A DNA stretch of 64,000 nt, from positions 62,001 through 126,000 of the forward strand of contig OZ237768.1 in NCBI GenBank assembly GCA_965178125.1. Reading direction: 5' to 3'. This document shows positions 3,001-56,614 of this stretch, one piece after another (the first letter of the stretch is position 1; each line of letters opens with the position of its first letter). The notes below the pieces were generated by a model. It did no database searches. It was given only the letters and a program-made list of their open reading frames with translations, and was not told where the DNA came from. The DNA comes from Bilabrum cf. latius (taxonomy: Eukaryota). The position numbers and the translations under genes were made by a program.

Positions 3001-3015
3001 GGCCAGCGGGCCACT
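1..3015. repeat. 82-bp tandem satellite array, ~36 copies, truncated by the window start
   Basis: Unit GCTTTGCAGCTGGCCAGCGGGCCACTGAYGGGCTGGGGCWGCWGCACGGCATTCGACTCCACCGGGTGSACGAGGATGCGGG recurs every 82 nt (ORF-track starts 4, 86, 168, 250...). One 37-bp partial duplication lies at ~403-439. The array ends at ...GGGCCACT 3015. Confidence 0.97.
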
Positions 3016-5845: not shown

Positions 5846-6019
5846 GATTTCAAAACTAAACTTAGACCAGCAAACATAAAAAGCACATCATATTAGCGCC
5901 ACGATGCTGGATAGTTCGGCCCGAGTTGCAGTTGTCATTGTAGCGTGCATTCCAGTCTTGGCTGAACCGATTCTATGATTTGAGTCTTCGCGTGCTCCGC
6001 ACTAGCCCTCTTGGGCAGC

Positions 6020-9000
6020 ATGTCTGCTTCTGTTGGCGCCCACATAGATATTACTGTTGCTGCAATCAGACATGCCGAGCTTTCGGGGCCTTCCGGCCGG
6101 ACATCTAGGCGGATGGGGGTCCATCATGTGACAAGCGCTATCGAACGCCTGTCAAAAGCCCACAAGCTTTCCGATCGGGATGTTCAAGGAGCATTCAGCC
6201 TTGTGTTAGAATTATCAAACATGGTGGAACCAGACTGGTACGTAAAACTGGAAAAGTACCGCGCAAATCTGGTAAGTCAGGCTTTGGCATCGCCCGCAAA
6301 GGTTCGCATTGTAGTTGCAGCCGCCGCTACAATTCATGTGTATTGTATCTTGCCTTGGCTCTGCTTTTGCAGGTGCGCTCCCCCGAACGACTTCGCCACA
6401 GGGCTCGATCGATGACCCCACTTTCGCCTGCGCTTGGGGATGGTACGCCAGATTTGGCCCGCAGTAGCAAAGCAAAATCGCGACCAAGGTCTGCTAGAAA
6501 CCGCTATGATGACTCAAGCATAGCGTCTGAAGCTGGATCTGATTGGGGCGCACCGGAAGTCACTGAAGCCCACGATGTCGGGATGGATGCGCATTCGCGG
6601 CACCGAGCAAGTGCTCCATTCCGGGCGGGTCTTCCTCGCCCCGCCCTGCTCGAGTCAAATATCCCCGGCATGATGCTTGGGCTCCCGCCCGCCCCTCACG
6701 GCCCCAGCACTGTGGCGTCCTCTTCGCCCCGAGGCTCGCCCCACCGAGCCACGGCGCCTGCCTCGGCCCCCCGAGGCCAGCATCAGCTCGAGGGTCGTCA
6801 GCGAGGAAGTCGGAGTCACAGGGGCTGGACCCAGCGGCGCAAATCTAGCAGGTTGCAAGGGGATGAATCTCCTAGTGATTTGGGTTCTCAGGTTTCAGGT
6901 GCAGGCGAGGAGGAGTCAAAGGCAAGCACCAGCGGGGGGGGCAGCGGTGCAAGCGAGGAGGAGGGGTTGGGTGTGGGTGTGGGTGTGGGTGCGGGCGTGG
7001 GCGTGGGCGTGGGCGGCCCGGAGGTTGCGGTGAGTGGTGGTAGATTGGCCAGGAGCAGCAGCGGGAGACGAAGAAAGGAAGGCAGCAGGAGAGGCAGCAG
7101 TGGCAGGGCAGGGCGCTCCCAGAAGGCACGTCTCAGGCAGTACGGCAAGTCTGCTTCATCCACGGGGAAGTTGAGGGGCAGCACTGGCAGGGGCAGGATG
7201 CAAGGTATGGATGGCCTTAATGCGCAGGGGCGGCGTGGTTAGGGCAGGACAGGGCGCAATCGCCCTGATGCTGTGCAACAGAACGAGTCTAAGCGAATCG
7301 AGAGGCGAAGACGGACAGGGGGCAAGCGTGGCACCTCGACTGCTGGTCGTGCCGGTGCTGCCGGCTCGGTGGCGACCGGTGACCTGCTTCGAGAGATTGG
7401 TATGACGAGTGGGTCAGGTGCAGGCAGCAAGGCAGTCCACTCAGACGACAGCGCTGGCATCGAGCACGCGATGCGGCAGGGGCTGTCCCCGGGCCGCCTC
7501 GGGCTGGCAGTGACACCGGCTGGAAGCAGGCCCCAGTCCTCGCCTGGGTCCGCGGACGAGGGGGCGGGGCAACAGGCCGGTGATGGCAGTGCAAAACATG
7601 AGGATGACGAGCACAAGCGATACCCAGACAGGGCGTTCGGGTGGTTTTGCGACATGTCGCTGTGCTTCAGGTACTGGAGACACGCGGTGAGGGCTCGCAA
7701 GGTGCATCGACAGCGGGCTAGAGAGAGGCTGCAGCGGGCTTCGGAGCTAGCCAGGCAGTCGGAGAGGGCCAAACAGTTGCGGGCTGGGTTTGAGGCCTTG
7801 CGAGCGCAGGCGGGTGAATCGAAGATGCCGAGGGTGCCGCACCCCGGCTTGGTGCGAGCTGTGTGGAAATGGATCGCAGTGGCAGTGCCCGAGGGTGGGG
7901 TGAGACGCACTTAGCTTGGTCACTGGTACGGTCCAGGGGACAGCGAGAGGGCGGATGGTCGCGTTGGTGACACGAGTGATGACACCGACAGCCGGTCGAG
8001 AGATGCCGCAGCAGCGCAGCCCGACTGGCACGTACCCGCTGAGGCCCTGCAGCAGGACGAGAGAGAGACAGTGGTGCGCAGCATCGTGGACGGGGATCCT
8101 GTCGGCGATTCGATGGGCTGGAGCAGAGGTAGTAGCGGGGTGCAGGGCGTGCTGCACGGAAAAGATGGGAAGAGGGTGCGTGCAGGAGCTGCATCAGCCT
8201 CTGGGTCTTGGTCTGCATCCTCGACGCACAGCCCCCTTCGACTGGCCCGCATGGCCATGGGCCAACGACCACGGAATTCAAGCGGCGGCACCACACCAGG
8301 ACCGAATGCTGAACAGCCGCATGTCTAGGCAGAAAGCGCAACCTCGATGCGAGCAGATCCGGATGGGCTAGCTGGCGCCCAGCCCAGACGGCGGCTCTAC
8401 GTCCTGCGGCGAGTGCAGCCGCCTGCCTTCCCGCGCAGCCGTATGCGGCGGTTCGATGCGGCCACTTCTGTCGCAGACGCAGCTATCTTGCTGCAGGCTT
8501 GGCGAGCTCTGCGGGCATCTGCCCTGGAGAGGAGGCGCGAGGAGGACAGGGACCGCGCCAGGGAACAAGCTACCCTGCAGAAGGCCGCGCTGATGTTTCG
8601 CGCGATGGGCGCTGCACGGGCCATCCGCACCTGGCGCGCATTTGCAGCTCCCAGGGCCAGGGTGCGGCAGGTTCTGGACGTGGCTGTGTCTCGGCTGGGA
8701 GCCAGGAGGTTGCAAGGTGGCTGGGAGCGGCTGAGGTCGCACGCACTGGCGCGCAGGCACGAGCGGAGGTCCATGTCAGTCGCCTCTCGGTAGTGGCGAG
8801 ACCGTCGGCAGGAGGAGGCGCTTAGGGGTTGGCTAGCGTGGGCTTCTGGTAGGGCCAGGCTGCGAGCGATTCGGGATCAGGTGCGTACCCGGCGCGCGGT
8901 AGGTGGCATCCTTGGGGCTCTTGGGAGGTGGAGAAAGTGGGCCGGAGACAGGCGCAGGGTGAGGCAGGCTGCCCGTGCCTTCCGGTGGCGGACGGTCAGC

Positions 9001-12000
9001 GGGAAGTGCCAAGAGGCTGTGGACAGGCTGCGAGAGCACGCGGCCCGGAGGAGGTGGAGGCGAGCGGCCGGACGACGGGCAGCACATTTTGGAGGTAGGC
9101 TCGCCTTGCGGCTTGCGTTGGCTCGGTGGCAAGCAGGGAAAGGGGCCGTGCAAGCAGAACGACGCGCCCGCATGCAGCGCGTGGTGGGGGCACTGCTCCA
9201 CGGCCGGGTCCGGAGGGGGCTGGTGCGTTGGAGAGAGTTCCTGCAGCAGAGGCAGCGCGGACGTGCCATGCTGCGGCGGGCCATCGCGGTGATGCAGGGG
9301 CGACAGGTGGCAGGGGCAATCCACCAGTGGAGGGGACTCGTGTCAGCCCGGCAGACCGACCGAGCCAAGCTGTAGAGAGCGGTTCGTCAGATGCGGCACG
9401 GAAGTGTTGGTCGGGGGCTCCGGTCCTGGGTGGCGTGGATGCAGGCTAGGAAGCAGGCCCGTGAACGCATGCGATCCGTTGCTCGCCGGCTCTTTGGGCG
9501 CCAGCAGGCTCGAGCCATTGCGAGGTGGCGCGAGTTTGTGAGCGCTCGGCAGCATGCGCGGGAGTCTATGCAGCGAGTTGTGCGTCGGATGCAGGGAGCG
9601 AGGGCGGGCCGGGCGCTGCGGACCTGGGTGTCCTGGGTGGAGGATAGGCGCGAGGGCAGAGAGCGCATGAGGGGCTGCGTGCGGCGCATGCAGATGCAGA
9701 GACAGGCAGCCGCGGTGGAGTGCTGGCGGGAGTTCGTGGACAGGCGGCACGTGGTACGGGAGCAGATGCGGGGGGTCATCGCTCGGTTGACGCTTGCGGG
9801 GGCGGGGCGGGCGCTCCGCCGGTTGCAGGAGCACGCGAGGGAGCGAGCGGCAGGGAGGGAGCGTCTGCGAGGCTGCATCGTCGAGCTGAGGAGCAGCGGC
9901 GCGAGGCGTGCGCTGCGGACCTGGGTGTCGTGGATGAACGCACGGCAGCAGGTGCGGGAGCAAATGCGCGGCGTGGTGGTGCGCATGTAGTTCGGGGCGG
10001 CCGGTCGCGCGCTGCGGACCTGGGTGTCGTGGATGAACGCACGGCAGCAGGTGCGGGAGCAAATGCGCGGCGTGGTGCTGCGCATGCAGTTCGGGGCGGC
10101 CGGTCGCGCGCTGCGGACCTGGGTTGGGTGGGTGCAGGATAGGCGAAGTAGGGTGCAGCGCGTGCAGCACGTCATGCACAGGTGGGCGCGCATGGGGGAG
10201 GCCAGAGCCCTCCGGCAGTGGGTGCAGTGGGCAAGGGAGCGGGCGGAGCGGCGGGCCATCATGCGGGCGGTTGCAACCAGGTGGCAGGCAGGCAAGCTGG
10301 GCGCTGGCTGGCGGTCCCTGCGAGAGCATGCCCTCCGGAGAAGGGAGCAGCGAGCGCTCTTGCGGAGGTGCGCAGCTCGGTGGGCCCATCAGAGCGTGGG
10401 GCGTGCGCTGCGCAAGCTTAGGGACCGAGCGAGGGCCCGCAGGTCCATTCGAGAGACAGCGGCCAGGGCGGCTGCCGCCTCTGGATAGGTGCAGGTGCGG
10501 CGAGCGATCCGAGTTTGGAGGGAGGCGGCGGCACGGCTGGGGCAGCAGAAGCAGGAGCGGCGAGCCGCGATGCGGCGCGCGGCCGCAGTGTGGCACTCCA
10601 AGGAGCAAAAGCTGCGGGTGCAGTGCTTCGATGCCCTCAAATCGCACTGGGGAAGGGAGAGAGAGCGGACCGCTGACATCGAGGAGAGGGTGCAGGAGCA
10701 CGCGAGGCGCCGCTTGAAGAACCGCGTGCTCCCACGGTGGTCTGCCTTCGTGCAGCAGAAGTAGAGCATGAGGCGGGCCGTGCAGGCGTTTGCGCGCAGC
10801 TCGGAGCACAGGGCACTCGTCACATGGAGAGCCTTCACGCAGGGCCGACAGCGCCACCGTGCCACGATGCTGGGAGCCGTGAGGAGGTGGCAGTCATAGG
10901 GGCTGGCCCGTGCTGTGGCGCAGTGGCGGCAGCATGCGGCTGATTCCAAGGGCACAAGGACCCGCATGCAGGTGGTGGTGCGCCGGCTTAGGAGCAGCGC
11001 ATCTTTGAGAGCCCTCAACCAATGGCGGGCGTGGGCCGGGGAGCGGTCGGAGATCCGCACCAAGCTTCATAGGGCGGTCCGTGGGATGCAACACGCGAGC
11101 GTTGGTCGGGGACTCCGGTCCTGGGTGGCGTGGATGCAGGCAAGGAAGCAGGCCCGCTCCACCAGGGCCCAGCAGCTGGAGCAGATGAGGAAGGTGCTGC
11201 CCGTGTGGAACAGCAGGCGGCTAGCGTCCGCCTGGCGCTCCTGGCAGGCGCTTTTGGCGGAGGCAGAGCGCAGGAGACATGCCATGAGGCCGGTCATACT
11301 GCGACTAAAGGGCATGCGTACAGGCAGGGCGCTGAGGTCATGGCGCCAGTGGACGGCTGGGCGGCGGGACGCAAAGCATGTGATGCGGCGGGCGGTGCTG
11401 GCCATGCAGAACGTGGGCCTGTCGCGGGCGCTCCGGAGGCTGAGGGAACACGCAGGGGCCAGGCAGGAGGGCAAGGCGATGATGGAGGCAGTCCTGAGGC
11501 GATTGCGGGTGGGCAAAGCGGCTGCAGCCCTTCGCACGTGGCGAGCGTTTGCAAGCGGCCAGAGTAGCCGCAAAGAGGCAGGCAGGCGGGTGCTGGCGCG
11601 GTGGCGGCACCAGGGGCTGGCTCGAGCAGTGTCCAGCTGGCGCGGCTGGCTGGAAGAGCGCCAGCAGCAGCGCGCCACCATGCACCGCGTGCTGGCTGCA
11701 CTTCGGATGTCCAGTGTGAAGCGGGCCATCGGGAGCTGGAGGGCCATGGTGGTAGAGCGGAGGCGGCTGTCAGGGGCAGCAGAGCGGGTGGTTCTATCGA
11801 TGCGACGAGCAGGAGAGCTTCGGGCTGTCAGGTAGTGGCGCGGATGGGCGGCAGCACAGCGCGGAAGGCAGGCCATCGACGCGGCGGCGGACCAGCACTG
11901 GTGGCTATTCAAGGCCTCTGCCGCTCTGAGGCTGTGGAGAGATTGGTACATCACGCGGCAGCGTGGAAGAGCCGTGGTTGAGTACCTCGGTACTCGCAGG

Positions 12001-15000
12001 GAGATTGCATGCATGTCCGGGGTGCTGCAGGCATGGGGCAGGGCAGCAAGGGCGTAGAGGCTCCAAAAACTAACCCTGCTTCGAGCGGCGGTGCGGGAGC
12101 AGCGTGCAGCTTTGCAAATTGGCATGAGGCAGCTCGGGATGGCTGTAGTTGCGCCGCACGGACTAGCTGTTGGACAGGTACCCGTCAGTAGTGAGGGGCA
12201 GAGCGACGTGCTGCAGCTCAATGGCCGAGAATGCAGGCTGCTCGGGGGCCTGTTCCAGCTTCTGGTCGCCAGGGCAGGTGCCAAGGGGCTGCAGAGTAGT
12301 AGCGGCGGGAAACGGCCACGGGGGCCGTCTGGCGTGCGGCGGCGCTCATTGTCCTCTTCGTCGTCCATATCTCGATTCTCTCGAAAGGGGGGGTGGCGGC
12401 GGGCAGCAGCCTTCGCTGCAGTGGTGCCAGCGACCACGGAGTATGCGTGGGGGCTGGCGCCGGGAGCGTCTGCTCTTGGGTAGGTTGGCACCAGGACCGA
12501 TACCAGACTGTGGGGTTGCGCTGATGCGGCGCGGCGTGCCCAGCAGGTGACGGAGGCGAGTTTCATGGGGTGGCTGGGGCTGGACGGATTCGGAGCGCCT
12601 CTCGTGAGGACTAGTGGCCGTCCTTCCCCGGCTTCGTAGGTTTAGCTGGCCTGCGTGCAGATGGGAATCATTGAGGATGGGGCAGGAGAGGGAGGAAGTG
12701 GCACTGCGGGTGTGCGATCGAACGAGGCGCATTCAAATCCTGATTGCGATGGTCGAGATGCCAAGGTCGTATGGGAGGTGCTGCAGGGGGCACGACATCC
12801 TCCGCTGCTCACCAGGGGTAGGTTCATGCGGTTCTGTGCGGGGGTTGGATTGCTTGCCAGTGAGGATGACAGGAGTCGGCTGCAGGCCGCATTCGAGGCC
12901 GAGGCCCAGGAGGACGCCACCGTAAGGCGGAGAACAGGGGATCGCCGTGTGCCTGAGCTTGGATCTACTGTAGCGTCCAGGCAGGCGAGGGCTGATCTCA
13001 TCGAGAGCGAGGGGAGACTGCCAGGCGCGGCCAGGGAGGCACTCATGCGCGCCTCTGCCAGAATGGGAGACAGCGCCATCGGCGAGAGCGTGGTTTCTGC
13101 CACGGGCGACACCTCGGTCATGGTGGAGGGCATTGGCTTCTAGGCCTTCCTCCGACTGCTAGGGTCGATCGCGTGGGATGTGTACGGAGAAGCTGCCGCT
13201 AGTCGGGCGAGGGAGGGGGGCAGACAGGCCGCCATCGTAGGGTCCAGTACCGGCGGTCGAGCGGGCGGTGATGGGGACAACCGGCAGATCAGCTTGAGTC
13301 CGGCATGCATGGCAGCTGCGGCGCTGATTCGCTTGCACGTGATGCCGGCTGCATTTGTGGCAGCTGCATGTGCCGCTCTTGATCTGGCTGAGGCAGGAAG
13401 GGGGGCCACCACTGGTGCAGCGGTGGAGCACGTGGCTCGGGCGGCGAATCTTGCGGCAGAGACAGGCGTGGCCCCAAGCCTAGCCATGACTCAGGCCGTG
13501 CAGCAGGGGCACGGTGCAGTGCTGGCCGACGATAGGGGTGTTCTCGAGGCTGCAGCAAGCCCACTCGTGCAGGACGGTCCCTCCGGCGTAGCTGTGACCC
13601 CGACTCCCACGCATGGCCCGTGGAGCAGTTTTCCTGCGGGTGCATTGCACGGCGCTGTCGAAGGCTAGGACCCCCACGCGCGTGATGTGTACGGCGAAGC
13701 GGCTCGGGACCCCGTCGGTTTCGTGCTGGCAGATGCTCCTCTGGACGAGGACGGACGAGCAGCAGTGCAGCTGCTGGCAGACAGTGCCGGGGCTCTGGAG
13801 GCTTTGTAGAGGCACTACGTCTCGGCTAGGAGCAGGACCAGCAGGGGCGACCGGAGCGCAGACACCCAGGACAAGCGATCTTCTGAGCCCGGCAGTCGTG
13901 CCGCGTTGCGCTCAGTATTTCGGTAGCTGGATGCAGATGGGGATAATGCTCTGAAAGGAGCCGAGCTGGGTGCCTTGGCGCGGTACTTGAGGGCCTACTC
14001 GGGAGGAGGGGTCAGTGGCATGAGCAAGGGGCAGGAGCAGGGGCCAGCTCGAGATGGTGTCCAAGTTGATCGGATCATCGATGCCGTTGCTACCAGCGGG
14101 GGCGGATCAATCAAATTTGACGGTTTCTGCGAGGCAGTTGACAGGGCGGGCGGGCTGTAGGGCGGCGACTCGCGCGTGGTGGTGGGCGCGCTGGCAGGCA
14201 GGCTCGCTGGACTGGTGCGGCCGCTGGACTCGACAGGAGGCGGGCGCTCGCCTGGAGCAGCAGGGTATGTGGCGAAGGCTGCTGGACACTAGAGTGGGGC
14301 AGGAGGTTAGTGGTAGAGCGAGCAGGCGAATGGATTTGAGGCAGCACATGCAGCGGCAGAGCGTGCTGCTGTGGAGCTCGAGGCACTGCGCATGATGAGG
14401 GCGTCTGCGGGGGCACTGGAGGAGGGTGAGACAAATGGTGCATCACATGCTGGTGTGCAAGAGGCGGGCAAGGACGCCAGGTCACTCGGTGCCACAGCTC
14501 GCGCCATGGCTAGAGGAGAGGCCGTGCCCGGCTCTGGCTGGGCAACTCGTGACGGGGATGGGGATGGGGACTCTGTGGACAGCGAGCTCGAAGCTGCAGC
14601 CAGAGGGGAGGGGCATGCATCATAGTAGAATGAAGGGGTGGATGGCCGTGGGCGCTTCGAGGCGTCGTTCCAGCCCACCGGAGCCAGGCCGAACGGAACA
14701 GGCGCTTCCCATCGGGCCCTGGCGCGCGCGCTGGCCCAAGACGCCCCTGCCCCCGCCCGCATGCAGCTTGCAGATGTGGAAGCGTTCCTTCGGGATGCCG
14801 GGCTCGATGCCGGCAAGCTGTCTCGGGCCGAGTGCAGGCGGCTATTCTCCGATGCATGCGCCATGCAAACCGCCCTGGACTTAAAGCAGGACCCGGGGGC
14901 CAAGGTGGCGGCCACCGGTCTGGGCACGCCGGCACTGGCGGGGCTCCTCGCGGCAGCGGGCACCATAGTGTACACGCGGCACCCGTTTCGACTGGATGGA

Positions 15001-16293
15001 ACCAGCAGGGTGTAGCGAATTGCGCTGTTGCTCCGAGGCGTCGATCTATCGGGTGCCGTGGCTCGCCGTGACATCAGCACGGGCAGGGGCGGTGCTGCGC
15101 TGGGAGGGCGCCGGTCGGTGAGCGCCGCGCGGGGAGGCAGACCGGCGCGGCAGCAGGAGCTGTTTCCCTCGGCCACACGGGCCCTGCGACGGGGAAGAGG
15201 GTCCTCATCGCCATCGCCATCCCTTGGGCCAGGCAAGGGAGGGCCCAGTGAAAGGAGCCAACAGCGGGTTCTAGAGGCGATGATGCTGGCTAGCGATGCA
15301 AGTGATCTTGGTGTTGAAGCAGGGATAGCGGGCGATCTCGAGAGATCTGCGGCCATGGATGCACCTTGGCTCGGTGGCAGGTCCAAGACAGCGGGCAGGG
15401 CCAGTACCAGGCCTGGATCCGTACCTAGCTCTCGGTCGAAGCCCGCTGTGGCACGTGCTCGATCCTCTGTGAGGCGGAAGGAGGCAAGTGGCAAGCTGCG
15501 ACTGTGGGAGTCTGCAGTGGGACCCTGGCCCGCCTCGGAGGAGGAGAGAACCATGGGAGCTGCTGCGGGGATGGGTGTGACGAGTGAGAGGGGGCCGCGG
15601 GTGGAAGTGTCCCGAGAGGCAGCGGCAGAGGCGGAGCTCCGACGGGATGGTGCACTGGCTCGAGCACGGGCCGTGGCAGAGGGTGGCCGCAGCGCCTACG
15701 ACCCCGAGGCAGCAGCGAGGCAGCTGGGGCGCAGTCGACCCAACTTCAGCGGCGGCCGGGCTGGGGCCACTCCCACTCCTCATAGCAGCGACAGGCAGGA
15801 CCAGGCCGTGGTGGACGCGGCCCGTCGGCTGGCTCGGGCCAGGGAGCAGGCGCTGCAGTGGACTAGGACCGCGCAGGGGCTGTCTAGCAGGAGGGGGGCG
15901 GGCGGGGATGAAGGTGAGGGTGAGGGTGGGGGTGAAGGGGTGCTGCACCTGGGAGATTAGGGTGCCGATAGGGGCAGAGATGGAGTGATGGGTGGGGAAG
16001 AAGAGACCTGGAATGGTGGGAGGGATGGCGATAATGAAGATGAAGAGGGTGCCACAGTTGGAGGTGGGGGAGTGCAGGAGGACAGGACTACGAGCCGAAA
16101 GTATGCAGGGACATACCCTGGTCATTGGTTCACAGGCATGATGCCAGCAGATCTAGACGCAGGTGCACCACCAGCGGATGACCTGGCCCATGACCCCGAG
16201 GGTCGCGCCACCATGCTGCTCGGGGCCATGTAGGCCAGGCAGAGGATTCGAGCTCCACTTCCGGTGCATGCGCTGGGGAGACCCCGAGAGTGA
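6020..16293 (+). CDS. Giant Sfi1-like (centrin-binding repeat) protein with an EF-hand pair, ~3400 aa; exon 1 6020-6301, intron 6302-6372, exon 2 6373-16293
   Basis: All frame-1 ORF fragments from 6343 to 16233 join through 27 TAG codons, with no TAA/TGA until TGA at 16291-16293. Many ~33-aa repeats of type RALRxWxxW span ~8450-12100. EF-hand-like FR*LDADGDNALKGAEL lies at ~13918-13970, followed by a degenerate partner ATSGGGSIKFDGF. The phase-0 intron is AAG|GT...TTTTGCAG|GTG. Confidence 0.8.
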
Positions 16294-16763: not shown

Positions 16764-17222
16764 TTACTTCAACAGACCCATCCTAGCAAGTTTATGGGCT
16801 AACGAAAGCTCATTGTCGTACTACAGTCCTTCGATCTCCTTCTTTGCTTGCGCCCTTTCCTTGCGAAATGCGCGTTCAAGACCGTCTCGCTTCCATTTGA
16901 TCTTCTCCGCTTCTAAAACTTCTTGCCTTCGCCTTTCGCGGTCTTCTTCTCGCTTTATTGCATCCGATATTTGTTTGTCGAGCTAAATCCGGTACAGCTA
17001 CAGCTCGGCGGCTTGCTTTGGCTCCAAAGCTATCGGAGCGGGAGCCGGATTTACAATTGGATCCACACCTCGCTTTGCACGGGCTTTGGCAGTCTGGTCT
17101 ACGGATGTTAAGGGATCATCTCCATTTATTTCTACTTTTCTGCTGGACTCTTCATCAAGTTCGAGGATTGTCATTGTGTTGAGCTTCAATATCTCGCCAG
17201 TCTCCGCATCTGCAACCTCCAT
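16764..17222 (-). CDS. Hypothetical 152-aa charged coiled-coil protein
   Basis: ATG at 17222. The frame reads through TAG at 16998, 16983 and 16821 into ...LDKQISDAIKREEDRERRRQEVLEAEKIKWKRDGLERAFRKERAQAKKEIEGL*YDNELSLAHKLARMGLLK and ends at TAA 16764-16766. Confidence 0.7.
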
Positions 17223-17442: not shown

Positions 17443-20400
17443 TTATCGTGCAGTCCGATCATCCGAGCAGCCAGCAGCCAACAGCACCCGCTCGCACTAC
17501 TAATGGCCACCCAAGCGAGCAGCGCCAAGAATTCCCACGACTACCGAGTCCCCCGCCTCATCCGGTACTTCTCCTTGCATGCTCAGCGCACCTGCAAGTC
17601 TTCCTAGCCGCAAGCGCTTCGACAGCTCCAGCGGCCGACCATCTCTCGCCGCCCTGAAGGCAAGGTCGCGGTCCCGCCATGCGCACATGCCATTTCGCCA
17701 CTGGAGCAGCCTGCCCTGCCTCGACTTGCCGACCCACGCCCACACCTGCCTCACCAGCCGCTGCGCATGCAAGCAATCAGGATGCGCACCGGACAAGCGC
17801 TCAAGCCAAGGAATGATCCCAAGCTGATCAATGCGCAATGGCCTTGCCCGCATCCACCCCGGCGGCGTGGCGTGCTGCCAGCTCGGCCGGGCCAGCTCGT
17901 CCAAGCACGCCGTGTCCAGCACGCCCTGCAGCAAGATGCGAGCCGCGCGCGGGCACGCCATGCCGTGCGTCTCGATCGCATCCTTGAAGTACTCGACAGC
18001 AGTGTCAAAGCCGATCGCCTCCCCGTGGCACACGAGAGACAGCAGAGTGGCAGCTCGGGTGGCAAGCACCACAGGCGGCGGGAAGCTGCTAGCATCTCCA
18101 GCACGTGACAGACTTGCAGCCTTGCGGGTGAATCGCTCTGATACCCATGCAGCTGCGATGAGAGCTCTGTGGCTGGAGGCCTGCACACGCGGTGCACCAG
18201 CGGCCGATCTGTCCTCGCTCTCAGATAGGGCAATCACTTCACGGGCTAGTTCCATGCCATACAATCGGTTTTCCGAGCTATCAAAAGCCCCACGAGCCGC
18301 TTTCAGGGCCGCAAGGTCGTCAGGGCAGATCTGGGCGCATTCGTCGGCACTCCGCCAGTCAATGACTGGCCTCTCCTCAATGGCGGCAACACAGTCAGCA
18401 CATCCAGGTACCACGCGGAACACCTCCGCATTACACATAGGATCTAGCTTTGTTTTCTGCCTACCCTCGGTGAACGGTGGGGACAGAAGAAGGCGTAGCC
18501 TGCTGCCCTGGGCCCATGCCGCAGAGCACAGCACAGCGGCAGCAGGTCGATCAATGGCACGATGTTGCAGCTTCACGTTCACGAGAGATGCGCTATTGCC
18601 CAGGCATTGAGCTGCGGCTATCGCTTTCTTCAAGCCCCAGCGTGACCGGGCATGTATCGCTACTGCCGAACAAGTCAGGCGCAGGGACTGCAGTCCAGGG
18701 TGGCCCCCCACTGCCTTCCAGAACTCGGCTCTCTCGATCGGATCGTGCTTTTTGTCTTCCCCGCGGCGTATTGCATAGTGCAAGTCCAGCGATCGAAGGG
18801 CTGGCAGCATGAGGCCAGCCAGAGTGACTCGGCAGGTAGCTTGCAGTGCTGATTCCACGATAGAACAACTGTTTGAAAGAGCTAGGCTGGCTAGTCCGTG
18901 CATCTGCTCTACAGCAGCTGCCATGGCGTTGATTCTGTCCTGATCCAGCGACGACATGTCCAAACACAACTCTCTGAGGTGCACAGTTGGCGCGGTCAGT
19001 GCATCCGTGAGGTGCTTAAGGCTTTCGGAGTCATCTGATGTGGGCGTGAAGACCAGGCGCTCCAGGTCAGGACACCCTTGAAGTAGCGCTCGGGCATCTC
19101 GAGTGGCCAGTGCATCCAGTTGCACCCTGCGGATCCGAGGCGGTGGACCCTTCGTTGTTGCTGCTGCTTCGTCCAAACGAGGTCGCAAAGCCATCGGACT
19201 CGCCAAAGCCTTGGCTATATCGCTCGCACTCCCGAAATAGTCCCCATAATCGTGAATGTCTAACGCGGTCAGTGACGTCGACGACTTCAGGCCGAGCAAG
19301 AACTCCTGTGCAGGCGGCATGGCTTGATCCTGAATGACGTCACGAAAGCCGCCAATGAGCCGGAGGTGCTGCAGCGGGATGCTTGTGCGCGTCACCTAGT
19401 GAAACTGCACGCTTCCAGGCCCGTGCATGAGCAAGCAGCCGACAGCCTCCCGAGCTCCAGCCTAGTCAGTGATATATCCGCGTCGCCTGGTAATTGCTGC
19501 CCTGTTGAGTCTGCGTCGGGCGAATAAAAGCCTTATCATGGGATTATCTAGGTGCTAAAAGTACTTGGACGCCTGTCCATTCAGCCGTGGAAAGTCCAGG
19601 CGGCGGACTCCTCCCGCGATGGAGAGAAGAGACAGCAGCACGCCCACGCACTCATCTCCCATTGCGCTGCCTGCCAGTGACAGTCTGTCGAGTCCATCCC
19701 CCCTACTGGCCCTGCAGCAGATCGCCGCCCCGAGACAAGCAACGTTGCGGAGGGCGCTCCCTCTGCTACACGATGCGTGGACGAGCTAAGCTCTAGCTCT
19801 TGCAACTGCAGCATACTTTCGCGCAACCGCTGGATCGATACCTAGGAGCCTATCGGCCATGCCAGAGGCGCGTGATCTTGCAGGTTTCGCAGGTGCTGGT
19901 GCACGGTTCGCAGGTGCTGGAGGACAGTCAGCCACTGCTGCAAGCCCAGCGCCATTCCAAAGCAGCCGACCAGTGGGCCACAGCCTGGGTGTGTCGGTTG
20001 CCTGCGATTCGTCAGCGCCCCCTAGCTTCTTCCAGTCCTCCGGAGGCTCGCTTGACTTCGTCAGCGGCACCACGGGTAGCACTGCTCGTGGCTTGCCGCC
20101 GTCACCCACAAGAACCGCACAGCGAGTGGCCAAGCCGCGAGGCCTGTGTTCTGGCAGCAGCGGCAGGACGGAGCATGGCGCAACAGTGCCCAGATCATCT
20201 GGAACTCTAGCCAGTGACGGAAGTATCATCATATGAGCTTCGTACTTGGCCTTCTCCTCATCAGTTACTTGAAATATGTTGGGTATGTCTGACAGGTTGA
20301 GGTGACGCAGGCTCGAGTTCGCAGCAAGCCCCCATGACATGTCCCGGAATGCGTTTGGGCACATCATACAGCCTCGCAGCGACAGCGATCGCAATCTACA

Positions 20401-20811
20401 CGCTCTACTGTGGCAAAGCATTAGTCCGAGAGCCATACCGTCTTCATTGTTTGACAGTTGGGATCCGTCCAAGCTGAGCTCCGTCAAACGCGAGAGGGAG
20501 GGGAAAAAATACAGAGGGCTCTATTGATGGGACCACGAGCCCATACCAGGCAAATCCATTTGCTCAATGCGTGCGTTCAGCTCGATGCTTGCGCTTTTCA
20601 GCTTTCGCAGGCGAGCGAAATCACGCTACACGAGCTGTTGCACACTAAAATCTCTCCGCACGCCAACAGCCTGAGTGCCGACAGGTAGCGTCGATAGCGC
20701 CGCCACATCATCGATCCACTGCGAGAGCTTGAGGAAGACTTGTACACAGAACACTCTAAGTTGGTTATCAGATTTGCTATTGCACCGAGGCAGAAGCTGC
20801 ACGGCCCGGGA
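17443..20811 (-). CDS. LRR/RNI-like protein, paralogue 1 (main open frame; start and 5' exons unresolved, possibly extending to ~21.7 kb)
   Basis: One frame joins ORFs 19786-20487 and 17500-19395 through 8 TAGs and ends at TAA 17443-17445. RNI-like LRR strands include LTELSLDGSQL, LRSLSLRGC, LAANSSLRHLNLS, LTALDI, LRELCL, LASLALS, LRSLDL and LQSLRL. An in-frame TGA at 20812 bounds the frame upstream. Confidence 0.7.
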
Positions 20812-23800
20812 TCAAACATCCGTCTGAACCGGGTATCAGTACTCTCCGGATGCTTAGGAAGTCACAACACAACCATCTGCGCAATCTTCAATCTCCTAGA
20901 GCTGCACGATGGCCTGGTAGCAACACCCGTACCACCAGAGTTGGAGATGTCGAAGTCGGTGTAGCTTCCCAAGGATGTCTATGGGTGAAGAAGTTTACCC
21001 GATCAGCTTGCACCTCCTGATGGTGTTGAGGCGTATCGCCACCTTTGCTGGAGTGGCCATTCGGATATTGTAGGCAGCCAATGCAAGCCAGCTGCTCGTG
21101 GCGTTCTCCCAGAAATTGGTTGGATTGGCTCACCTCCATCCGGATGTTGGACTGAAATGAATCGCTATCCATACAAATCCGATCGAACCACCCCTTTTTT
21201 TCTGCTTTTCTCTCAATTCTTGAGGAGGATAGATACCGCCATAAGGATCCACCAAGGCGTTGAACTGCATATGGACCATGCCTCGGGTTTTCTCCAGTCA
21301 AATCGCACTCCGAGTCGCCGCACAGAGCATTGCAGGCCTGCTTGCTTGCTTGTATGGCTGCATGCATGCACGCAGCGGTGGTGCCGGTGGAACTGGAGCC
21401 TCGTTCCGGGCAGGCTTGTAGGTCAGTACAACATGTAGCAGATCGAGCCTTGGCAGCTGTATCAACACGCCCAGGTGCCCGAGGTACGACTCGGGCTTGA
21501 GGTGATATCCCGCTGCCCAGCCATCACGTGTCACAGGCAGAACAAATCGCCACAGCAGCGGGCCTGCAGGCTCGCATTGAGTAGCTGACCAAGCTCGCTG
21601 GCATCAATGGGAGCAATCATCGCGGTAGAGGGCATCACGTGCCTGGTCTGTGTCCCGCTGGCAGCAGCAGGCCAGCTAGATCCGGATTGTTACCCGACTA
21701 GGCCTAGTAGTACCCTGCTTGTTGCGACCAGGGTGAATCTCGCGTGCCGCCAATGCATCGCCCTCATCGTGATCGATGACCGCCTGTGTACCGTATGCCG
21801 CAATAATGCCTTGCAAGGTAAATGATCTGGGCGATTCGCAAAGAGAGTGTCCAGGGCAGGCAGCTGATCCGGGATTGGATGATGTACGGTGCTCGGCACC
21901 GGCGTTATCACAATTAACACCCAATAAGGAACTGGTCGAACTTACCCAAAGTATCATGTGACGTGGATATGAAAACAAATGCATCGCATTTCAGCCACGG
22001 TATAAATAGCACATAGACGAGGGATGGTACAATCACGACTCCAATCAACGACAAGTCCCATCATCCGAGCAGCCAGCAGCCAACAGCACCCGCTCGCACT
22101 ACAAATGGCCACCCAAGCGAGCAGCGCCAAGAATCCCGACGAAAACCGAGCCCACAGATTGAGCCGGTACTTCTCCTTGCATGCTCAGCGCACCTGCAAG
22201 TCTTCCTAGCCGCAAGCGCTTCGACAGCTCCAGCGGCCGACCATCTCTCGCCGCCCTGAAGGCAAGGTCGCGGTCCCGCCATGCGCACATGCCATTTCGC
22301 CACTGGAGCAGCCTGTCCTGCCTCGACTTGCCGACCCACGCCCACACCTGCCTCACCAGCCGCTGCGCATGCAAGCAATCAGGATGCGCACCGGACAAGC
22401 GCTCAAGCCAAGGAATGATCCCAAGCTGATCAATGCGCAATGGCCTTGCCCGCATCCACCCCGGCGGCGTGGCGTGCTGCCAGCTCGGCCGGGCCAGCTC
22501 GTCCAAGCACGCCGTGTCCAGCACGCCCTGCAGCAAGATGCGAGCCGCGCGCGGGCATTCCATGCCGTGCGTCTCGATCGCATCCTTGAAGTACTCGACA
22601 GCAGTGTCAAAGCCGATCGCCTCCCCGTGGCACACGAGAGACAGCAGAGTGGCAGCTCGGGTGGCAAGCACCACAGGCGGCGGGAAGCTGCTAGCATCTC
22701 CAGCACGTGACAGACTTGCAGCCTTGCGGGTGAATCGCTCTGATACCCATGCAGCTGCGATGAGAGCTCTGTGGCTGGAGGCCTGCACACGCGGTGCACC
22801 AGCGGCCGATCTGTCCTCGCTCTCAGATAGGGCAATCACTTCACGGGCTAGTTCCAGGCCATACAATCGGTTTTCCGAGCTATCAAAAGCCCCACGAGCC
22901 GCTTCCAGGGCCGCAAGGTCGTCAGGGCAGATCTGGGCGCACTCCTCGGCTTTCCGCCAGTCAATGATTGGCCTCTCCTCAATGGCGGCAACACAGTCAG
23001 CACATCCAGGTACCACACGGAACACCTCCGCATTACACATAGGATCTAGCTTTGTTTTCTGCCTACCCTCGGTGAACGGTGGGGACAGAAGAAGGCGTAG
23101 CCTGCTGCCCTGGGCCCATGCCGCAGAGCACAGCACAGCGGCAGCAGGTCGATCAATTGCACGGTGTTGCAGCTTCACGTTCACGAGAGATGCGCTATTG
23201 CCCAGGCATTGAGCTGCGGCTATCGCTTTCGTCAAGCCCCAGCGCCACTTGAAACGCCTTGCGAGTATCGAACAAGTCAGGCGCAGGGACTGCAGTCCAG
23301 GGTGGCCCCCCACTGCCTTCCAGAACTCGGCTCTCTCGATCGGATCGTGCTTCATGTCGATCCCGTGGCGTTTTGCATAGTGCCAGTCCAGCGATCGAAG
23401 GGCTGGCAGCGTGAGGCCAGCCAGAGCGACTCGGCAGGTAGCTTGCAGTGCTGATTCCACGATAGAACAACTGTTTGAAAGAGCTAGGCTGGCTAGTCCG
23501 TGCATCTGCTCTACAGCAGCTGCCATGGCGTTGATTCTGTCCTGATCCAGCGACGACATGTCCAAACACAACTCTCTGAGCTGCACAGTTGGCGCGGTCA
23601 GCGCATCTGTGAGGTGCTTCAGGCCATACTTACGATCTAATCTGGGTTGGGTGTTCAAGTGCTCCAGGTCAGGGCACCCTTGAAGTAGCGCTCGGGCATC
23701 TCGAGTGGCCAGTGCATCCAGTTGCACCCTGCGGATCCGAGGCGGTGGACCCTTCGTTGTTGCTGCTACTTCGTCCAAACGAGGTCGCAGCAGCATCGGG

Positions 23801-26365
23801 CTCGCCAAAGCCTTGGCCATATCGCTCGTGCTCCCGAAATAGTCCCCATAATCGTGAATGTCTAACGCGGTCAGTGACGTCGACGACTTCAAGCCGAGCA
23901 AGAACTCCTGTGCAGGCGGCATAAAGAGCCCCCGATAGCGTCTAGTAGATATAGTGCCAATGAGCCGGATGTGCTGCAGCGGGATGCTCCTGCGCGTCAC
24001 CTAGTGAAACTGCACGCTTCCAGGTCCGTGCATGAGCAAGCAGCCGACAGCCTCCCGAGCTCCAGCCTGGTCAGTGATGTATCCGCCTGGTATGCTGCCC
24101 GGCGCAATGTTGGCTCTGAGTTGACCTCGAAATCTCCCTAAATGGGGACGTTCTTGGCGCGAGATGTACTCGACCTGCCCATCCAGCCGTGGAAAGTCCA
24201 GGCGGCCGACTCCACCCGCGATAGAGAGAAGAGACAGCAGCACGCCCACGCACTCATCTCCCATTGCGCTGCCTGTCAGTGACAGTCTGTCGAGTCCATC
24301 CCCCCTACTGGCCCTGCAGCAGATCGCCGCCCCGAGACAAGCAACGTTGCGGAGGGCGCTCCCTCTGCTACACGATGCGTGGACGAGCTAAGCTCTAGCT
24401 CTTGCAACTGCAGCATACTTTCGCGCAACCGCTGGATCGATACCTAGGAGCCTATCGGCCATGCCAGAGGCGCGTGATCTTGCAGGTTTCGCAGGTGCTG
24501 GTGCACGGTTCGCAGGTGCTGGAGGACAGTCAGCCACTGCTGCAAGCCCAGCGCCATTCCAAAGCAGCCGACCAGTGGGCCACAGCCTGGGTGTGTCGGT
24601 TGCCTGCGATTCGTCAGCGCCCCCTAGCTTCTTCCAGTCCTCCGGAGGCTCGCTTGACTTCGTCAGCGGCACCACGGGTAGCACTGCTCGTGGCTTGCCG
24701 CCGTCACCCACAAGAACCGCACAGCGAGTGGCCAAGCCGCGAGGCCTGTGTTCTGGCAGCAGCGGCAGGACGGAGCATGGCGCAACAGTGCCCAGATCAT
24801 CTGGAACTCTAGCCAGTGACGGAAGTATCATCATATGAGCTTCGTACTTGGCCTTCTCCTCATCAGTTACTTGAAATATGTTGGGTATGTCTGACAGGTT
24901 GAGGTGACGCAGGCTCGAGTTCGCAGCAAGCCCCCATGACATGTCCCGGAATGCGTTTGGGCACATCATACAGCCTCGCAGCGACAGCGATCGCAATCTA
25001 CACGCTCTACTGTGGCAAAGCATTAGTCCGAGAGCCATACCGTCTTCATTGTTTGACAGTTGGGATCCGTCCAAGCTGAGCTCCGTCAAACGCGAGAGGG
25101 AGGGGAAAAAATACAGAGGGCTCTATTGATGGGACCACGAGCCCATACCAGGCAAATCCATTTGCTCAATGCGTGCGTTCAGCTCGATGCTTGCGCTTTT
25201 CAGCTTTCGTAGGCGAGCGAAATCACGCAACACGAGCTGTTGCACACTAAAATCTCTCCGCACGCCAACAGCCTGAGTGCCGACAGGTAGCGTCGATAGC
25301 GCCGCCACATCATCGATCCACTGCGAGAGCTTGAGGAAGACTTGTACACAGAACACTTGGTCATCAGATTTGCTATTGCATCGAGGCAGAAGCTGCACGG
25401 CCCGGGATCAAACATCCGTCTGAACCGGGTATCAGTACTCTCCGGATGCTTAGGAAGTCACAGCACAACCATCTGCGCAATCTTCAATCTCCTAGAGCTG
25501 CACGATGGCCTGGTAGCAACACCCGTACCACCAGAGTTGGAGATGTCGAAGTCGGTGTAGCTTCCCAAGGATGTCTATGGGTGAAGAAGTTTACCCGATC
25601 AGCTTGCACCTCCTGATGGTGTTGAGGCGTATCGCCACCTTTGCTGGAGTGGCCATTCGGATATTGTAGGCAGCCAATGCAAGCCAGCTGCTCGTGGCGT
25701 TCTCCCAGAAATTGGTTGGATTGGCTCACCTCCATCCGGATGTTGGACTGAAATGAATCGCTATCCATACAAATCCGATCGAACCACCCCTTTTTTTCTG
25801 CTTTTCTCTCAATTCTTGAGGAGGATAGATACCGCCATAAGGATCCACCAAGGCGTTGAACTGCATATGGACCATGCCTCGGGTTTTCTCCAGTCAAATC
25901 GCACTCCGAGTCGCCGCACAGAGCATTGCAGGCCTGCTTGCTTGCTTGTATGGCTGCATGCATGCACGCAGCGGTGGTGCCGGTGGAACTGGAGCCTCGT
26001 TCCGGACAGGCTTGTAGGTCAGTACAACAGGTAGCAGATCGAGCCTTGGAAGCTGGATCAATACGCCCAGCTGCCCACTGGCAAGGCGCGACTCGGGCTT
26101 GAGGTGATACCCCGCTGCCCAGCCACCACCTGTCACAGGCAGAACAAATCGCCACAGCAGCGGGCCTGCAGGCTCGCAGTGAGTAGCTGACCAAGCTCAC
26201 TGGCATCAATGGGAGCAATCATCGCGGTAGAGGGCATCACGTGCCTGGTCTGTGTCCCGCTGGCGGCGGCAGCCCAGCTTGATCCGGAACGTTACCCTAC
26301 TGTACTTGTTGCGACCAGGGTGAATCTCGCGTGCCACCAATGCATCGCCCTTATTGTGATCGAGG
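17460..26365. repeat. Tandem segmental duplication, two ~4.3-kb copies with a ~4.6-kb period
   Basis: ~17460-21780 aligns with ~22060-26365. For example, the 233-aa ORFs 19786-20487 and 24388-25089 are identical. Confidence 0.93.
22045..25407 (-). CDS. LRR/RNI-like protein, paralogue 2 (main open frame; start and 5' exons unresolved, possibly extending to ~26.3 kb)
   Basis: Near-identical copy of paralogue 1 at an offset of ~4.6 kb. ORFs 25123-25398, 24388-25089, 24001-24264 and 22099-24000 share one frame and are separated by TAG. Ends at TGA 22045-22047. Confidence 0.7.
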
Positions 26366-39000: not shown

Positions 39001-39297
39001 GGCACAGCGTCCATCGCCGCCACCACGGGTGGCCTGGCGAGCAGGCCCGGGAGGGTGTCTGCTGGGAGCGCCCGGCGGCGGGCCGAGGAGAGAGACAGCT
39101 CGAGGAAGATCCTCGGCGCGGCAGGGAGGTATCCAGACCCGGCGGACAAGCAGCGGTACATGGATCAGCTGGGCGGTGGGGGTAGGGGTGCAGGAGCTGC
39201 CAGCGGCAAGGGCAAGGGTGTGGAGGCTGTAGGGCGTGCGAGCAGCGGGCAGGGCTATACGAAGAGCAGAAGAGGGCCTAAGCTAAGGAGCAAGTAA
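27067..39297 (+). CDS. Giant (~4076 aa) protein with an IQ-like motif and dispersed ARM/HEAT-like helical repeats separated by acidic/Gly-rich linkers
   Basis: All frame-1 ORFs from ATG 27067 join through 11 TAGs (27310, 28117, 28513, 29416, 31009, 31996, 34390, 35518, 35542, 36697, 38053), with no TAA/TGA until TAA 39295-39297. ARM-like segments include AALALANLSV..VAGEGAIPAAATLL, SALRLLQNL..VAASGAVPYLQRL and AALLALARMAS..LVEQGAVRLVV. The IQ-like motif AARRL*LWWRAREARR lies at ~28498-28545. Confidence 0.78.
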
Positions 39298-53764: not shown

Positions 53765-53878
53765 ATGCAGTACTTGTAGCATTGATTGGTCGAAAGATCC
53801 GGATGGTATCGAGTTGCGTGCTGTTATGCGAATATCGACGCGCGCAATAAGTGTGACGTATAACGACATCCTTCTGCA

Positions 53879-56614
53879 ATGCGATCTTTGGCTGCCGTCG
53901 CTTTAGGGTAGCTGCTGGCATGCTCTGCTGCTATTGCATCGATCCCGGGATTCCCACGGTACAGCGACTATGCTGGCTCAAAGTATCGAGTGGGTTACAC
54001 AAAGCGATCCATCACCTTGAACGACGAACCTGCCCTATTTGTCTCGGGTTCGTTGCATCCTCCGCGGATCGAGCCTGCCGATTGGAATACAGCCTTTGAT
54101 CAGATCCTCGAGTCCGGTGGTAACATGGTGAGAACGGGTTCGCCTACCGTCGTCGCAAGGCCAAACAGAATCGTGCAATGATGTGCAAGGCTGCTTCCTG
54201 TGTGTCGGTATGAATGTATCGCAGGTTCAGCCATACGGTGAGTGTTGCACTCGGTGCCATGATGGCTATTTCTAGCTCCAGTCGGATCAGTTGCACTTGG
54301 CGCCACTGGCAGCAACCTCGCCTGTCACGACTGCTAGGCAACGTTGAACATGCAGCATCGCTTTTGATGACCTTCTTGTTGTATTTGCAGTCTTCTGGAA
54401 CTTCCACCAGCCGACCGAAGAGGAGTGGATCTGGGAGGGGAGAGCCAACCTCACTGCCTTCATCGAGGCTGCCGCCAACAAGGGCCTCTTCGGTGAGCAG
54501 CGTGGTCTGTCTTGTGTCAGTGCGTCCGTATGCGACTTAGGGGGCATGCTGTCCAACTCATCTCTACTTTCTCCCTTTTTGACTGGCACGCTATCCAGCG
54601 CATCCTCATCTCTACCTCTCCCTTATACCTGATCAAGTGCCCAGTGGTCCTGCGCGGCGGCCCCTATGTGTGCGCCGAATGGAGTTCGGGCGCAGTGCCG
54701 GTATGGCTGAACGGCAAGCCGGGCATCTCGTACCGCACCGAGAACGCCGTCTGGCAGCACTACATGCAGCAGTTTTTCGACCGGATCATCAAGGCCGTGG
54801 GCGAGGCCAAGCAGTTCGCCGCGCAGGGCGGGCCCGTGGTCATCGTCCAGGTCGAGAACGAGCTGCACGGCGCGCCCGACTCGTACGTGCAGTGGTGCGG
54901 AGACATGGCTCACGAGGCCGTGCAGCCGTATGACCCGGACGCCGTGATTATCATGTGCAACGGGCAGAGCGCCAACAACACGGTCAACACGTGCAACGGC
55001 AAGTCGTGCACGGGTTTCATCGAGGAGAACGGGCAGAACCACCGCATCCTGGTGGACCAGCCCCCGCTGTGGACCGAGGCAGAGGGTGGCTTTCAGGTGT
55101 GGGGGGGCAGCCCCTCTGACCCGACCTCGTACTTTTGGGGGCAGCCCGCCGCGCAGGAAGCCTTCAACATGGCCCAGTGGTTCGCGAGAGGAGGCTCCCA
55201 CGCCAACTACTACATGTTCTCCGGGGGCTCCAACCCCTCCCGGTTCGCTGGGGCTGGCATCACCCAGTACTACGCGATCGACGGGCCCGTCTGCAGCGAC
55301 CTGCTCCCCCACGAGCCCAAGTATTCGCACCTTACGGGCCTGCATCGCGCCGTGGAGTACTACGCCCCGCACATCGCCTACTCGGACGCGCAGGTGAAGA
55401 ACAAGGTGCCGGTGGAGTACTTTGACACGAGCAACAGTTCATGGGCCACGGGCACCCAGCAGTACGCCTTCGTGTACCAGTCCAGCGAGGGCACCAAGCA
55501 AGGGGTGCCCGCGGTGGCCTTTGTCGAGTCTGTGGCGAGCATCCCTCTGCGCGTCCGGTGGAGGCAGCACGAGTTTGACATGGGCCCGAATTCAGTGGCG
55601 GTGGTGGACGAGCAGGAGGGCATCCAGTGGCTCTCCAGCGCGGTGACTGCCCCTGCCGTGCACCGCGTGTACGACCCGATCGCGGACCTGGGCGCGACGG
55701 GGCTGCGGGCCGGCAACTCGCTGGACTGGAGCAGCTGGGGCGAGCCCATCACTGCGGCAGAGGCCAAGCAGGGTCCTCCCAGCAAGAGTGCCGCCTCCCC
55801 CATCGAGCAGGGCAACTTCACGAGCGGTGTCACCGAGTACATGTGGTACGAGACGGCCATGCCCTCGGGGGGCATCAAGAAAGGGGACCAGCTGTCCATC
55901 GCATCCAGGACGGCCAACTCCATGCTGCTGTTCGCTGACGACCAGTACCTGGGGGAGGCAAACGACCACTCTCACCACGACGACGACAAGGAGCTCACCA
56001 TCACCGCGAGTGCCGACGCCACCTCGGCCCAGCGGCTGTCCCTCCTCTCCGCCACGCTGGGCTACTCGAACGACATGGGCAGCGGCAGCGGCCCCAAGAC
56101 CAAGGGCATCATCGGGGCCGTGAAGCTGGGGAACAACGAGGTGCAGGGGCCGTGGACCATGCGGGGCGACCTGACGGGCAACTTCCTGGAGATCGCCTCA
56201 GCCGCTGGCAAGAGCAAGGTCAGCTGGACCAAGGGGCCGGCCACCGGCGCCGCGCAGCGGCTGACGTGGCTGCAGGCCGAGTTCGTGCTGCCCCGCGCAT
56301 TGGGTGAGGGCGAGCGGCTGCACTTCAACGCGACGGGGCTGGGCCGGGGCCACCTGTTCCTCAACGGCAACGACGTGGGCCGGTACTGGACGATCTTGCG
56401 GAACGACGGCTCCGGGCAGTTCACGCAGACCATGTACCACCTGCCCACGGCACAGCTTAATCCCGCGGGGCAGAGCAACGTGATCACCGTGGCAGAGGTG
56501 CTGGGGGCCACTGCGGTGGAGCAGCCGGGGCTGTTTGTGGCCAGCATGCAGCCGGGGTCGGGCGAGGAGCCGAGCAAGGGCTGGGGGCAGGAGATCAACT
56601 CGTGCAAGATGTGA
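53879..56614 (+). CDS. Secreted glycoside hydrolase family 35 beta-galactosidase, ~777 aa; exons 53879-54127, 54225-54237, 54391-54492, 54645-56614
   Basis: The spliced product gives GH35 motifs FVSGSLHPPR, GGNMVQPYVFWNFHQP, GLFVVLRGGPYVCAEW, QVENE (acid/base), LWTE (nucleophile), NYYMFSGGSN, YMWY and GRGHLFLNGNDVGRYW. The N-terminus is signal-peptide-like (MRSLAAVALG*LLACSAAIA). Donors are GTGAG and acceptors CAG. Stop is TGA. Confidence 0.92.

Follow-up and report, generated by a model that had tools for sequence, protein, structure and literature searches.

Read-through frames and predicted genes

The window examined here is a stretch of 64,000 nucleotides (nt) of contig OZ237768.1 from Bilabrum cf. 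latius, and our subject is which of the three stop codons still end translation in its genes, among them two paralogues that we call LRR1 and LRR2 after the leucine-rich repeat (LRR) label given to them in a preliminary description. Read with the standard bacterial table (table 11), regions of the window split into many short open reading frames (ORFs), and reading through TAG brings out very long ones. The read-through frames and the predicted genes associated with them are as follows.

3233-5845, minus strand: read-through frame of 870 codons with 2 in-frame TAGs (3359-61 and 4616-8); a tubulin-family gene with long inserts, ending in TGA at 3233-3235
5926-16293, plus strand: read-through frame of 3455 codons with 29 in-frame TAGs
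6412..16293, plus strand: predicted gene of 3293 codons with 27 in-frame TAGs, ending in TGA at 16291-16293
16764..17222, minus strand: small coiled-coil-like gene with 3 in-frame TAGs, ending in TAA at 16764-16766
17443-20802, minus strand: read-through frame of 1119 codons with 8 in-frame TAGs (LRR1)
22045-25398, minus strand: read-through frame of 1117 codons with 4 in-frame TAGs (LRR2)
27067-39297, plus strand: read-through frame of 4076 codons with 11 in-frame TAGs; a low-complexity gene, ending in TAA at 39295-39297
40494-43910, with a copy at 47694-51110, minus strand: read-through frames of 1138 codons with 5 TAGs each; a gene of no known family, ending in TGA
53879..56614, plus strand: GH35 (glycoside hydrolase family 35) beta-galactosidase gene with three exons (~53879-54130, 54375-54548 and ~54644-56611), ending in TGA at 56612-56614
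56939-63037, minus strand: read-through frame of 2032 codons with 15 in-frame TAGs; the intact ORF, with endonuclease and reverse transcriptase, of a retrotransposon without long terminal repeats (a long interspersed nuclear element, LINE), ending in TAA at 56939-56941

Because the window holds a tubulin-family gene, a LINE, a three-exon GH35 gene and GT-AG joints, it is eukaryotic nuclear DNA, rich in guanine plus cytosine (GC; 55-72%) and with few introns. The Pfam matches are to Tubulin (PF00091, E=4.3e-24), RVT_1 (E=6.6e-14) and Glyco_hydro_35 (E=3.6e-36), and the GT..AG joints are found in contigs of public runs, one at 6270->6372 on the plus strand (runs X5 and X6) and the other at 20718->21134 on the minus strand (run X5). 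That the contigs are joined without the introns suggests that they derive from transcripts; the run types of X5, X6 and X7 are a software guess (RNA), and X5 was flagged as probably DNA. An origin from bacteria or phages that use code 15 is ruled out by the introns, the tubulin and the LINE, and an organellar origin by the gene content together with the lack of tRNAs.

Terminators in the long frames

Codons were counted in seven non-redundant frames comprising 13,552 codons, with LRR2 left out. In frame, these contain no TAA, 71 TAG and no TGA, whereas the corresponding numbers off frame are 25, 89 and 199 in the +1 frame and 31, 99 and 210 in the +2 frame. The frequency of TAG is thus about the same in frame as out of frame. 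As TGA and TAG are equal in base composition, composition cannot account for the presence of 71 of one and none of the other. It counts against a simple use of these numbers that TAA and TGA define the ORFs, and their absence within them is partly a matter of construction; the weight of the evidence lies in the existence of frames of 2,000-4,000 codons and in the contrast with the off-frames. The counts support a sense meaning for TAG and termination at TAA and TGA, and TAG is therefore decoupled from TAA. The best explanation, to which we assign a probability of roughly 0.85, is that this nuclear genome reads UAG as an ordinary sense codon and has kept UAA and UGA as terminators.

If instead both UAR codons (UAA and UAG) had been reassigned, as in ciliates and hexamitins (NCBI table 6), TAA might have gone unseen through the high GC of the window; a GC of 55-72% does leave A-ending codons in a minority, with shares of 0.13-0.35. 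To estimate how many TAAs would stand in frame if TAA were synonymous with TAG, we took the share of A-ending codons that each gene itself shows across the CAR, GAR and AAR pairs (R being A or G). The estimate is 24.5 in-frame TAAs against none observed (P=1.6e-9), of which the LINE, where this share is 0.42, would contribute 11. Moreover, TAA closes four independent frames, those of the small gene, LRR1, the 27067-39297 gene and the LINE, although these ends are without a conserved C-terminus as an anchor. We therefore regard a shared reassignment of both codons as extremely improbable, in agreement with the preliminary description, which had set the code apart from the ciliate type in which UAR is glutamine (Gln).

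The ends of the genes point in the same direction as the counts. There are 10 non-redundant gene ends, 6 of them TGA and 4 TAA, and over 14 TAA/TGA ends the mean GC of 90 nt windows falls from 0.619 before the stop to 0.525 after it. Together with the counts and the TGA of the GH35 gene (below), this drop supports the initial proposal that UAA and UGA still terminate and that UAG has been decoupled. Eight gene ends listed there besides those of the paralogues are all correct (TAA at 16764, 39295-39297 and 56939; TGA at 3233, 16291-16293, 39523, 46712 and 56612-56614), and the remark that no TAA occurs in frame in the modelled genes holds for the long frames and extends to TGA.

The LRR-like paralogues provide a further view of the terminators, and their parts are listed below.

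17443..17445, minus strand: LRR1 terminator TAA, read in the sequence; GC is 0.61 in the preceding 90 nt, then 0.50 and 0.34 after it
17446..20718, minus strand: LRR1 last exon, 1091 codons, with 8 in-frame TAGs (17497-17502, 19396-8, 19462-4, 19555-7, 19786-8, 20521-3 and 20626-8)
20719..21133, minus strand: LRR1 intron of 415 nt, GT..AG, phase 0, from the X5 joint (GTGAGC...CGCAG; ...NIRME joined to WIDDV...)
21134..~21523, minus strand: LRR1 upstream coding exon, in frame with the last exon, its upper limit being approximate
22045..22047, minus strand: LRR2 terminator TGA
22048..25320, minus strand: LRR2 last exon, with 4 TAGs (22099-101, 24001-3, 24388-90 and 25123-5)

LRR1 has the C-terminus ...CERVLLAAGCSDDRTAR followed by TAA at 17443-17445, and LRR2 the C-terminus ...CERVLLAAGCSDDGTCR followed by TGA at 22045-22047; both ends had been reported correctly from the sequence and its translations. 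The two stops lie 4602 nt apart, a distance that equals the duplication period and recurs in 4 of the 7 direct-repeat families between 16000 and 27000. The preliminary description went further and took the exchange of TAA for TGA at a conserved position to mark the true terminator. Homology of the two stops is indeed likely, as a stop at the same codon would arise by chance with a probability of about 3%; the position itself is less conserved than was supposed, since similarity decays about 12 nt before the stops, which lie at the edge of the duplicated segment.

Several properties of the pair weigh against leaning on it. The final 12 nt of LRR1 and LRR2 DNA are identical at only 7 of 12 positions and no alignment is possible downstream, while 18 codons before the stop there is an in-frame TAG in both, as TAG TAG at 17497-17502 in LRR1 and as a single TAG at 22099-22101 in LRR2, where the first codon of the pair is TTG. 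With homology fading at the stop, and with TAG or TAG-TAG standing 18 codons upstream, the argument from these paralogues is weak on its own. In addition, the two differ by 67 non-synonymous and 26 synonymous codon changes, and several short stretches are frame-shifted in one copy and then restored, with both frames free of TAA and TGA; for these reasons the paralogues are poor witnesses if taken alone.

What LRR1 does offer is a spliced junction. The X5 contig covers 19622-20718 with no differing letter, is joined to 21134, and spans the TAGs at 19786-8, 20521-3 and 20626-8, which suggests that TAGs of LRR1 persist unchanged in a spliced, transcript-derived contig. As three TAGs are unedited there, RNA editing of TAG is unlikely. 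The same joint corrects the earlier intron-free gene models, since the LRR1 frame above 20718 is intron, and LRR2 has an acceptor sequence identical to that of LRR1 at the homologous place. The LRR label is not confirmed: no Pfam LRR family matches either paralogue at E<=0.01 or even at E<=10, and an iterated repeat profile for the LRR units recovered no further units, the L..L.L-like stretches being visible by eye only.

These observations also bear on whether the TAG-containing frames are translated as read at all, or are instead pseudogenes, non-coding GC-rich DNA or sequences from which TAG is removed by editing or splicing. The frame-shifted stretches of the LRR paralogues and their 67 non-synonymous against 26 synonymous differences suggest weak constraint, and most of the long predicted proteins in the window are without a Pfam family. 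Against this, TGA occurs 199 and 210 times off frame and never in frame, which would be unexpected in non-coding or decayed DNA, and the three TAGs in the spliced contig are unaltered. Furthermore, the two copies of the 1138-codon gene, which are 99.4% identical, differ by 15 synonymous and 5 non-synonymous changes with all 5 TAGs present in both, and TAGs are spread across frames of thousands of codons and are too numerous to be accounted for by hidden introns. There is thus hardly any likelihood that the frames are untranslated.

Stronger support for a terminator comes from the GH35 gene, which has homologues by which its end can be placed. Three homologues, P0004 (70% identity), P0005 and P0008, were tested among the 106 found, and in all three the protein's own last residue aligns to the codon just before the TGA at 56612-56614. 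This gene supplies the check on a stop codon at a conserved C-terminus that had been proposed at the outset, and the TGA matches in 3 of 3 homologues tested. Near its other end the gene also speaks for TAG as sense, with one TAG located after the start codon and ahead of the conserved domain.

There remains the question of whether TAG ends translation close to the 3' ends of messages. Counted in codons, the last TAG lies 18 before the TAA or TGA in LRR1 and in LRR2, 19 before it in the small gene, 20 in the 6412-16293 gene and 42 in the tubulin-family gene. Two points here speak against uniform read-through: a near-terminal TAG is found in four independent genes where about one is expected from TAG frequencies, and the codon-usage scores of the five tails beyond the last TAG (+0.11, -0.12, +0.13, -0.07 and -0.07 per codon) fall between those of random coding segments (mean 0.19, standard deviation 0.20) and those of the first 19 codons after stops (mean -0.34). 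A dual, context-dependent UAG could account for both; the codon would be sense internally and a terminator near the 3' end of the mRNA, several genes including both LRR paralogues would end at TAG, and an ORF defined by TAA or TGA would extend a few dozen codons into the 3' untranslated region.

However, GC falls after TAA/TGA and not after the last TAG, as in the 6412-16293 gene, whose final 90 nt, with the tail counted in, have a GC of 0.68 against 0.47 beyond the stop, and since the shift is located there, read-through to TAA or TGA is favoured. The scores of two among the five tails resemble those of coding sequence, near-terminal TAGs exceed expectation by little (about 4 against 1), and the TGA of the GH35 gene coincides with the end of its homologues. 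The UAG-only codes in print show no UAG terminators. In the rhizarian exLh, according to the passages of PMC5304391 that treat its stops, UAG is the terminator in 0 of 71 genes. We consider a dual UAG rather unlikely, although some termination at TAG near 3' ends may occur.

Meaning of TAG, decoding and known codes

Glutamine is the amino acid that we favour for TAG, by a modest degree of confidence; leucine (Leu) is a possible but doubtful assignment, and any other residue is unlikely. In this window the hyperconserved columns of Pfam domains are free of TAG, and the assignment is accordingly tentative. In the 33-residue repeats of the 3293-codon gene, the four columns that hold TAGs contain Q in 5 of 25, 8 of 25, 3 of 25 and 4 of 26 rows and L in 1, 1, 0 and 0. 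When the LINE region was searched with HMMER, 5540 matches were obtained at E<=0.001, and among the best 150 of these, three TAGs are faced by Q in relatives (P0114, 45%; P0113, 55%; P0116, 94% identity), the other residues aligned to LINE TAGs being V, R and N. In addition, seven fragmentary relatives could be aligned up to their own last residue, and our next codon at these places is CAG, CAG, CAA, CAA, TAG, GAC and CAC. This series fits a gene caller that may have cut the relatives at a TAG standing for Gln.

Other observations weigh against Gln and in favour of Leu or another hydrophobic residue. The GH35 gene has a TAG (53909-53911) in its signal-peptide region, between the sole in-frame ATG and the conserved N-terminus, where it falls in the peptide's hydrophobic core. 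A TAG is also found at position DH+3 of the LINE endonuclease, where the column contains V 27, L 11, I 7 and Q 2 times among 60 relatives; as 2 of the 60 have Q, we dropped the notion that this position demands a hydrophobic residue. The LRR paralogues differ as TAG/TTG twice and as TAG/CAG once. About 0.5 chance TAG/TTG events are expected when TTG sites are included, against the 2 seen, and with this the significance that was at first apparent is lost. Much of the evidence for Gln is itself confounded: whatever TAG encodes, it arises by mutation most often from CAG. A naive-Bayes model of neighbouring residues ranks A > Q > V > G > L, although it is weak, recovering a true Q in 72 of 200 control trials.

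A plausible mechanism is that a dedicated tRNA with the anticodon CUA would decode UAG without pairing to UAA, and that eRF1 would have lost recognition of UAG, or be outcompeted there, while keeping UAA and UGA. The same framework, a CUA-tRNA that reads UAG but not UAA combined with loss of UAG by eRF1 or with competition, is set out in the sections of PMC5304391 on decoding, which also name the eRF1 motifs GTS, NIKS and YxCxxxF. It detracts from the proposal that we infer this mechanism, because the window yielded no gene in a tRNA scan and no match to an Rfam family, and no eRF1 gene lies within its 64 kb. A single coding sequence that holds 27 TAGs demands efficient decoding of UAG, and leaky read-through would leave hardly any full-length product.

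The kind of code proposed here is already known. Its separation of UAG from UAA was first reported, on the account given in the relevant parts of Panek et al. 2017 (PMC5304391), in exLh and Iotanema spirale. In the latter, a member of Fornicata, UAG is Gln and UAA and UGA terminate, with UAA as the primary terminator and a change in the GTS motif of eRF1 (same source, in its portions on Iotanema); among fornicates, the passages of PMC9161772 on this point confine the UAG-only code to the Iotanema lineage. The window resembles Iotanema in that UAG alone is sense, UAA and UGA are terminators and Gln is the likeliest meaning. It differs in that UAA is primary there, whereas here TGA leads at the non-redundant ends.

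The rhizarian exLh (Sainouroidea) reads UAG as Leu and uses UAA 56 times and UGA 15 times as stops, in the figures available to us from PMC5304391. Our genes share with it the UAG-only reassignment and the rarity of UAG in strongly biased genes, as the main exon of the GH35 gene (GC at third codon positions, GC3, of 0.89) has 0 TAG, and a few TAG sites are compatible with Leu, although most comparisons here favour Gln over Leu.

Phyllopharyngean ciliates also read UAG as Leu or Gln with UAA as the preferred stop, and McGowan et al. 2024 (PMC11687900) describe repeated independent UAG-only reassignments, with suppressor tRNA genes in some of the genomes. The reassignment of UAG only is common to these ciliates and the window, but here genes of 3-4 thousand codons, a LINE and a satellite lie on one 64-kb stretch with 55-72% GC. 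Such a combination of long genes, LINE and satellite on GC-rich DNA of this length is probably unlike ciliate macronuclear DNA.

NCBI table 15, in which TAG is Gln, is used by some phages (PMC9523058). If TAG is Gln here the codon table is identical, although the DNA before us is eukaryotic and nuclear, with introns, a tubulin-family gene and a LINE. Context-dependent codes are found in Condylostoma, karyorelict ciliates and Blastocrithidia, and in Condylostoma and the karyorelicts all stop codons are dual. These codes and table 6 are alike with ours in a stop-to-sense reassignment involving UAG, and differ from it in that no TAA or TGA stands in frame in our 13,552 codons.

In the full-text literature that was searched, no such code appears in a GC-rich non-ciliate besides exLh and Iotanema. 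Novelty, if any, would lie in the lineage and in how often UGA serves as a stop. We tentatively suggest a further independent origin of a UAG-only code, in an unpublished GC-rich non-ciliate, with UGA as the commoner stop and with UAG perhaps still stopping near the 3' end as an intermediate state, although this is doubtful. Nuclear codes that split UAG from UAA have been described in just a handful of lineages and show that the translation apparatus can distinguish the two UAR codons; a further case would be an independent data point on the origin of such codes, and one with long genomic stretches, high GC and frequent UGA stops. As the standard code fragments every long gene of this organism, and database relatives are such fragments, annotation needs the right table.

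Other features of the genes and repeats

The LINE has database fragments that are 87-95% identical to it, which suggest the existence of other copies, and a relative at 46% identity terminates exactly at one of our TAGs (residue 1123). Further searches with the element returned little: an exact 23-nt LINE pattern had 0 matches in metagenome contigs and 0 in genome contigs, the search for related loci with the LINE protein in metagenome contigs gave no confirmed relative, and a separate homologue search, run on the region of the LINE, found a single weak match. The endonuclease part had one weak match among PDB sequences (E 1.1), which was not used, and jackhmmer on the endonuclease domain retrieved 2 rows only.

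The main exon of the GH35 gene, 656 codons in length, lacks TAG altogether, and the GC3 of the gene compares with 0.6-0.77 in its neighbours; strong codon bias would account for this, and so would a foreign origin. Its top database relative is 70% identical and metagenomic, while the named relatives are scattered over Pelomyxa, Symbiodinium, a diatom and plants and are uninformative on lineage. A search for GH35-related loci in genome contigs gave no confirmed relative, and Pfam matches among 54 further small ORFs of the window were limited to the two upstream GH35 exons.

The 3293-codon gene has a 101-nt GT..AG intron (6271-6371) in its 5' leader, seen in contigs of X5 and X6. Between 9200 and 12500 on the plus strand it contains at least 28 copies of the Arg- and Trp-rich 33-residue repeat, of which 28 rows were aligned; the newest pair (9910-10124) is 98% identical. 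An EF-hand pair in the same gene lies below the Pfam cut-off. The small gene at 16764-17222, of about 150 codons, belongs to no known family, and contigs of X5, X6 and X7 all map there.

The region ~38100-53800 is duplicated in tandem; its period is 7200 nt, and the identity across the 1138-codon gene is 99.4%. Each 7200-nt unit begins inside the 3' end of the 4076-codon gene, and 45095-46486 and 52220-53764 are truncated copies that retain the last ~440 codons of that gene and the same TAA end. Residue 3663 is encoded by TAG in the full gene and by CAG in the copy at 45095-46486. At the other end of the window, positions 1-3015 form a satellite of an 82-nt GC-rich unit in tandem, with ~37 copies that match at 97-98%, and all three of its minus-strand frames stay open.

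The tubulin-family gene carries a Gly/Arg-rich insert of ~300 residues between its N-terminal part and the GGTGSG loop. A homologue search with the C-terminal part gave 1 match, fragment P0263, which is 79% identical and comes from a public assembly. The same insert is kept in P0263, diverged within itself, and the fragment shows that a related strain or species has already been sequenced.

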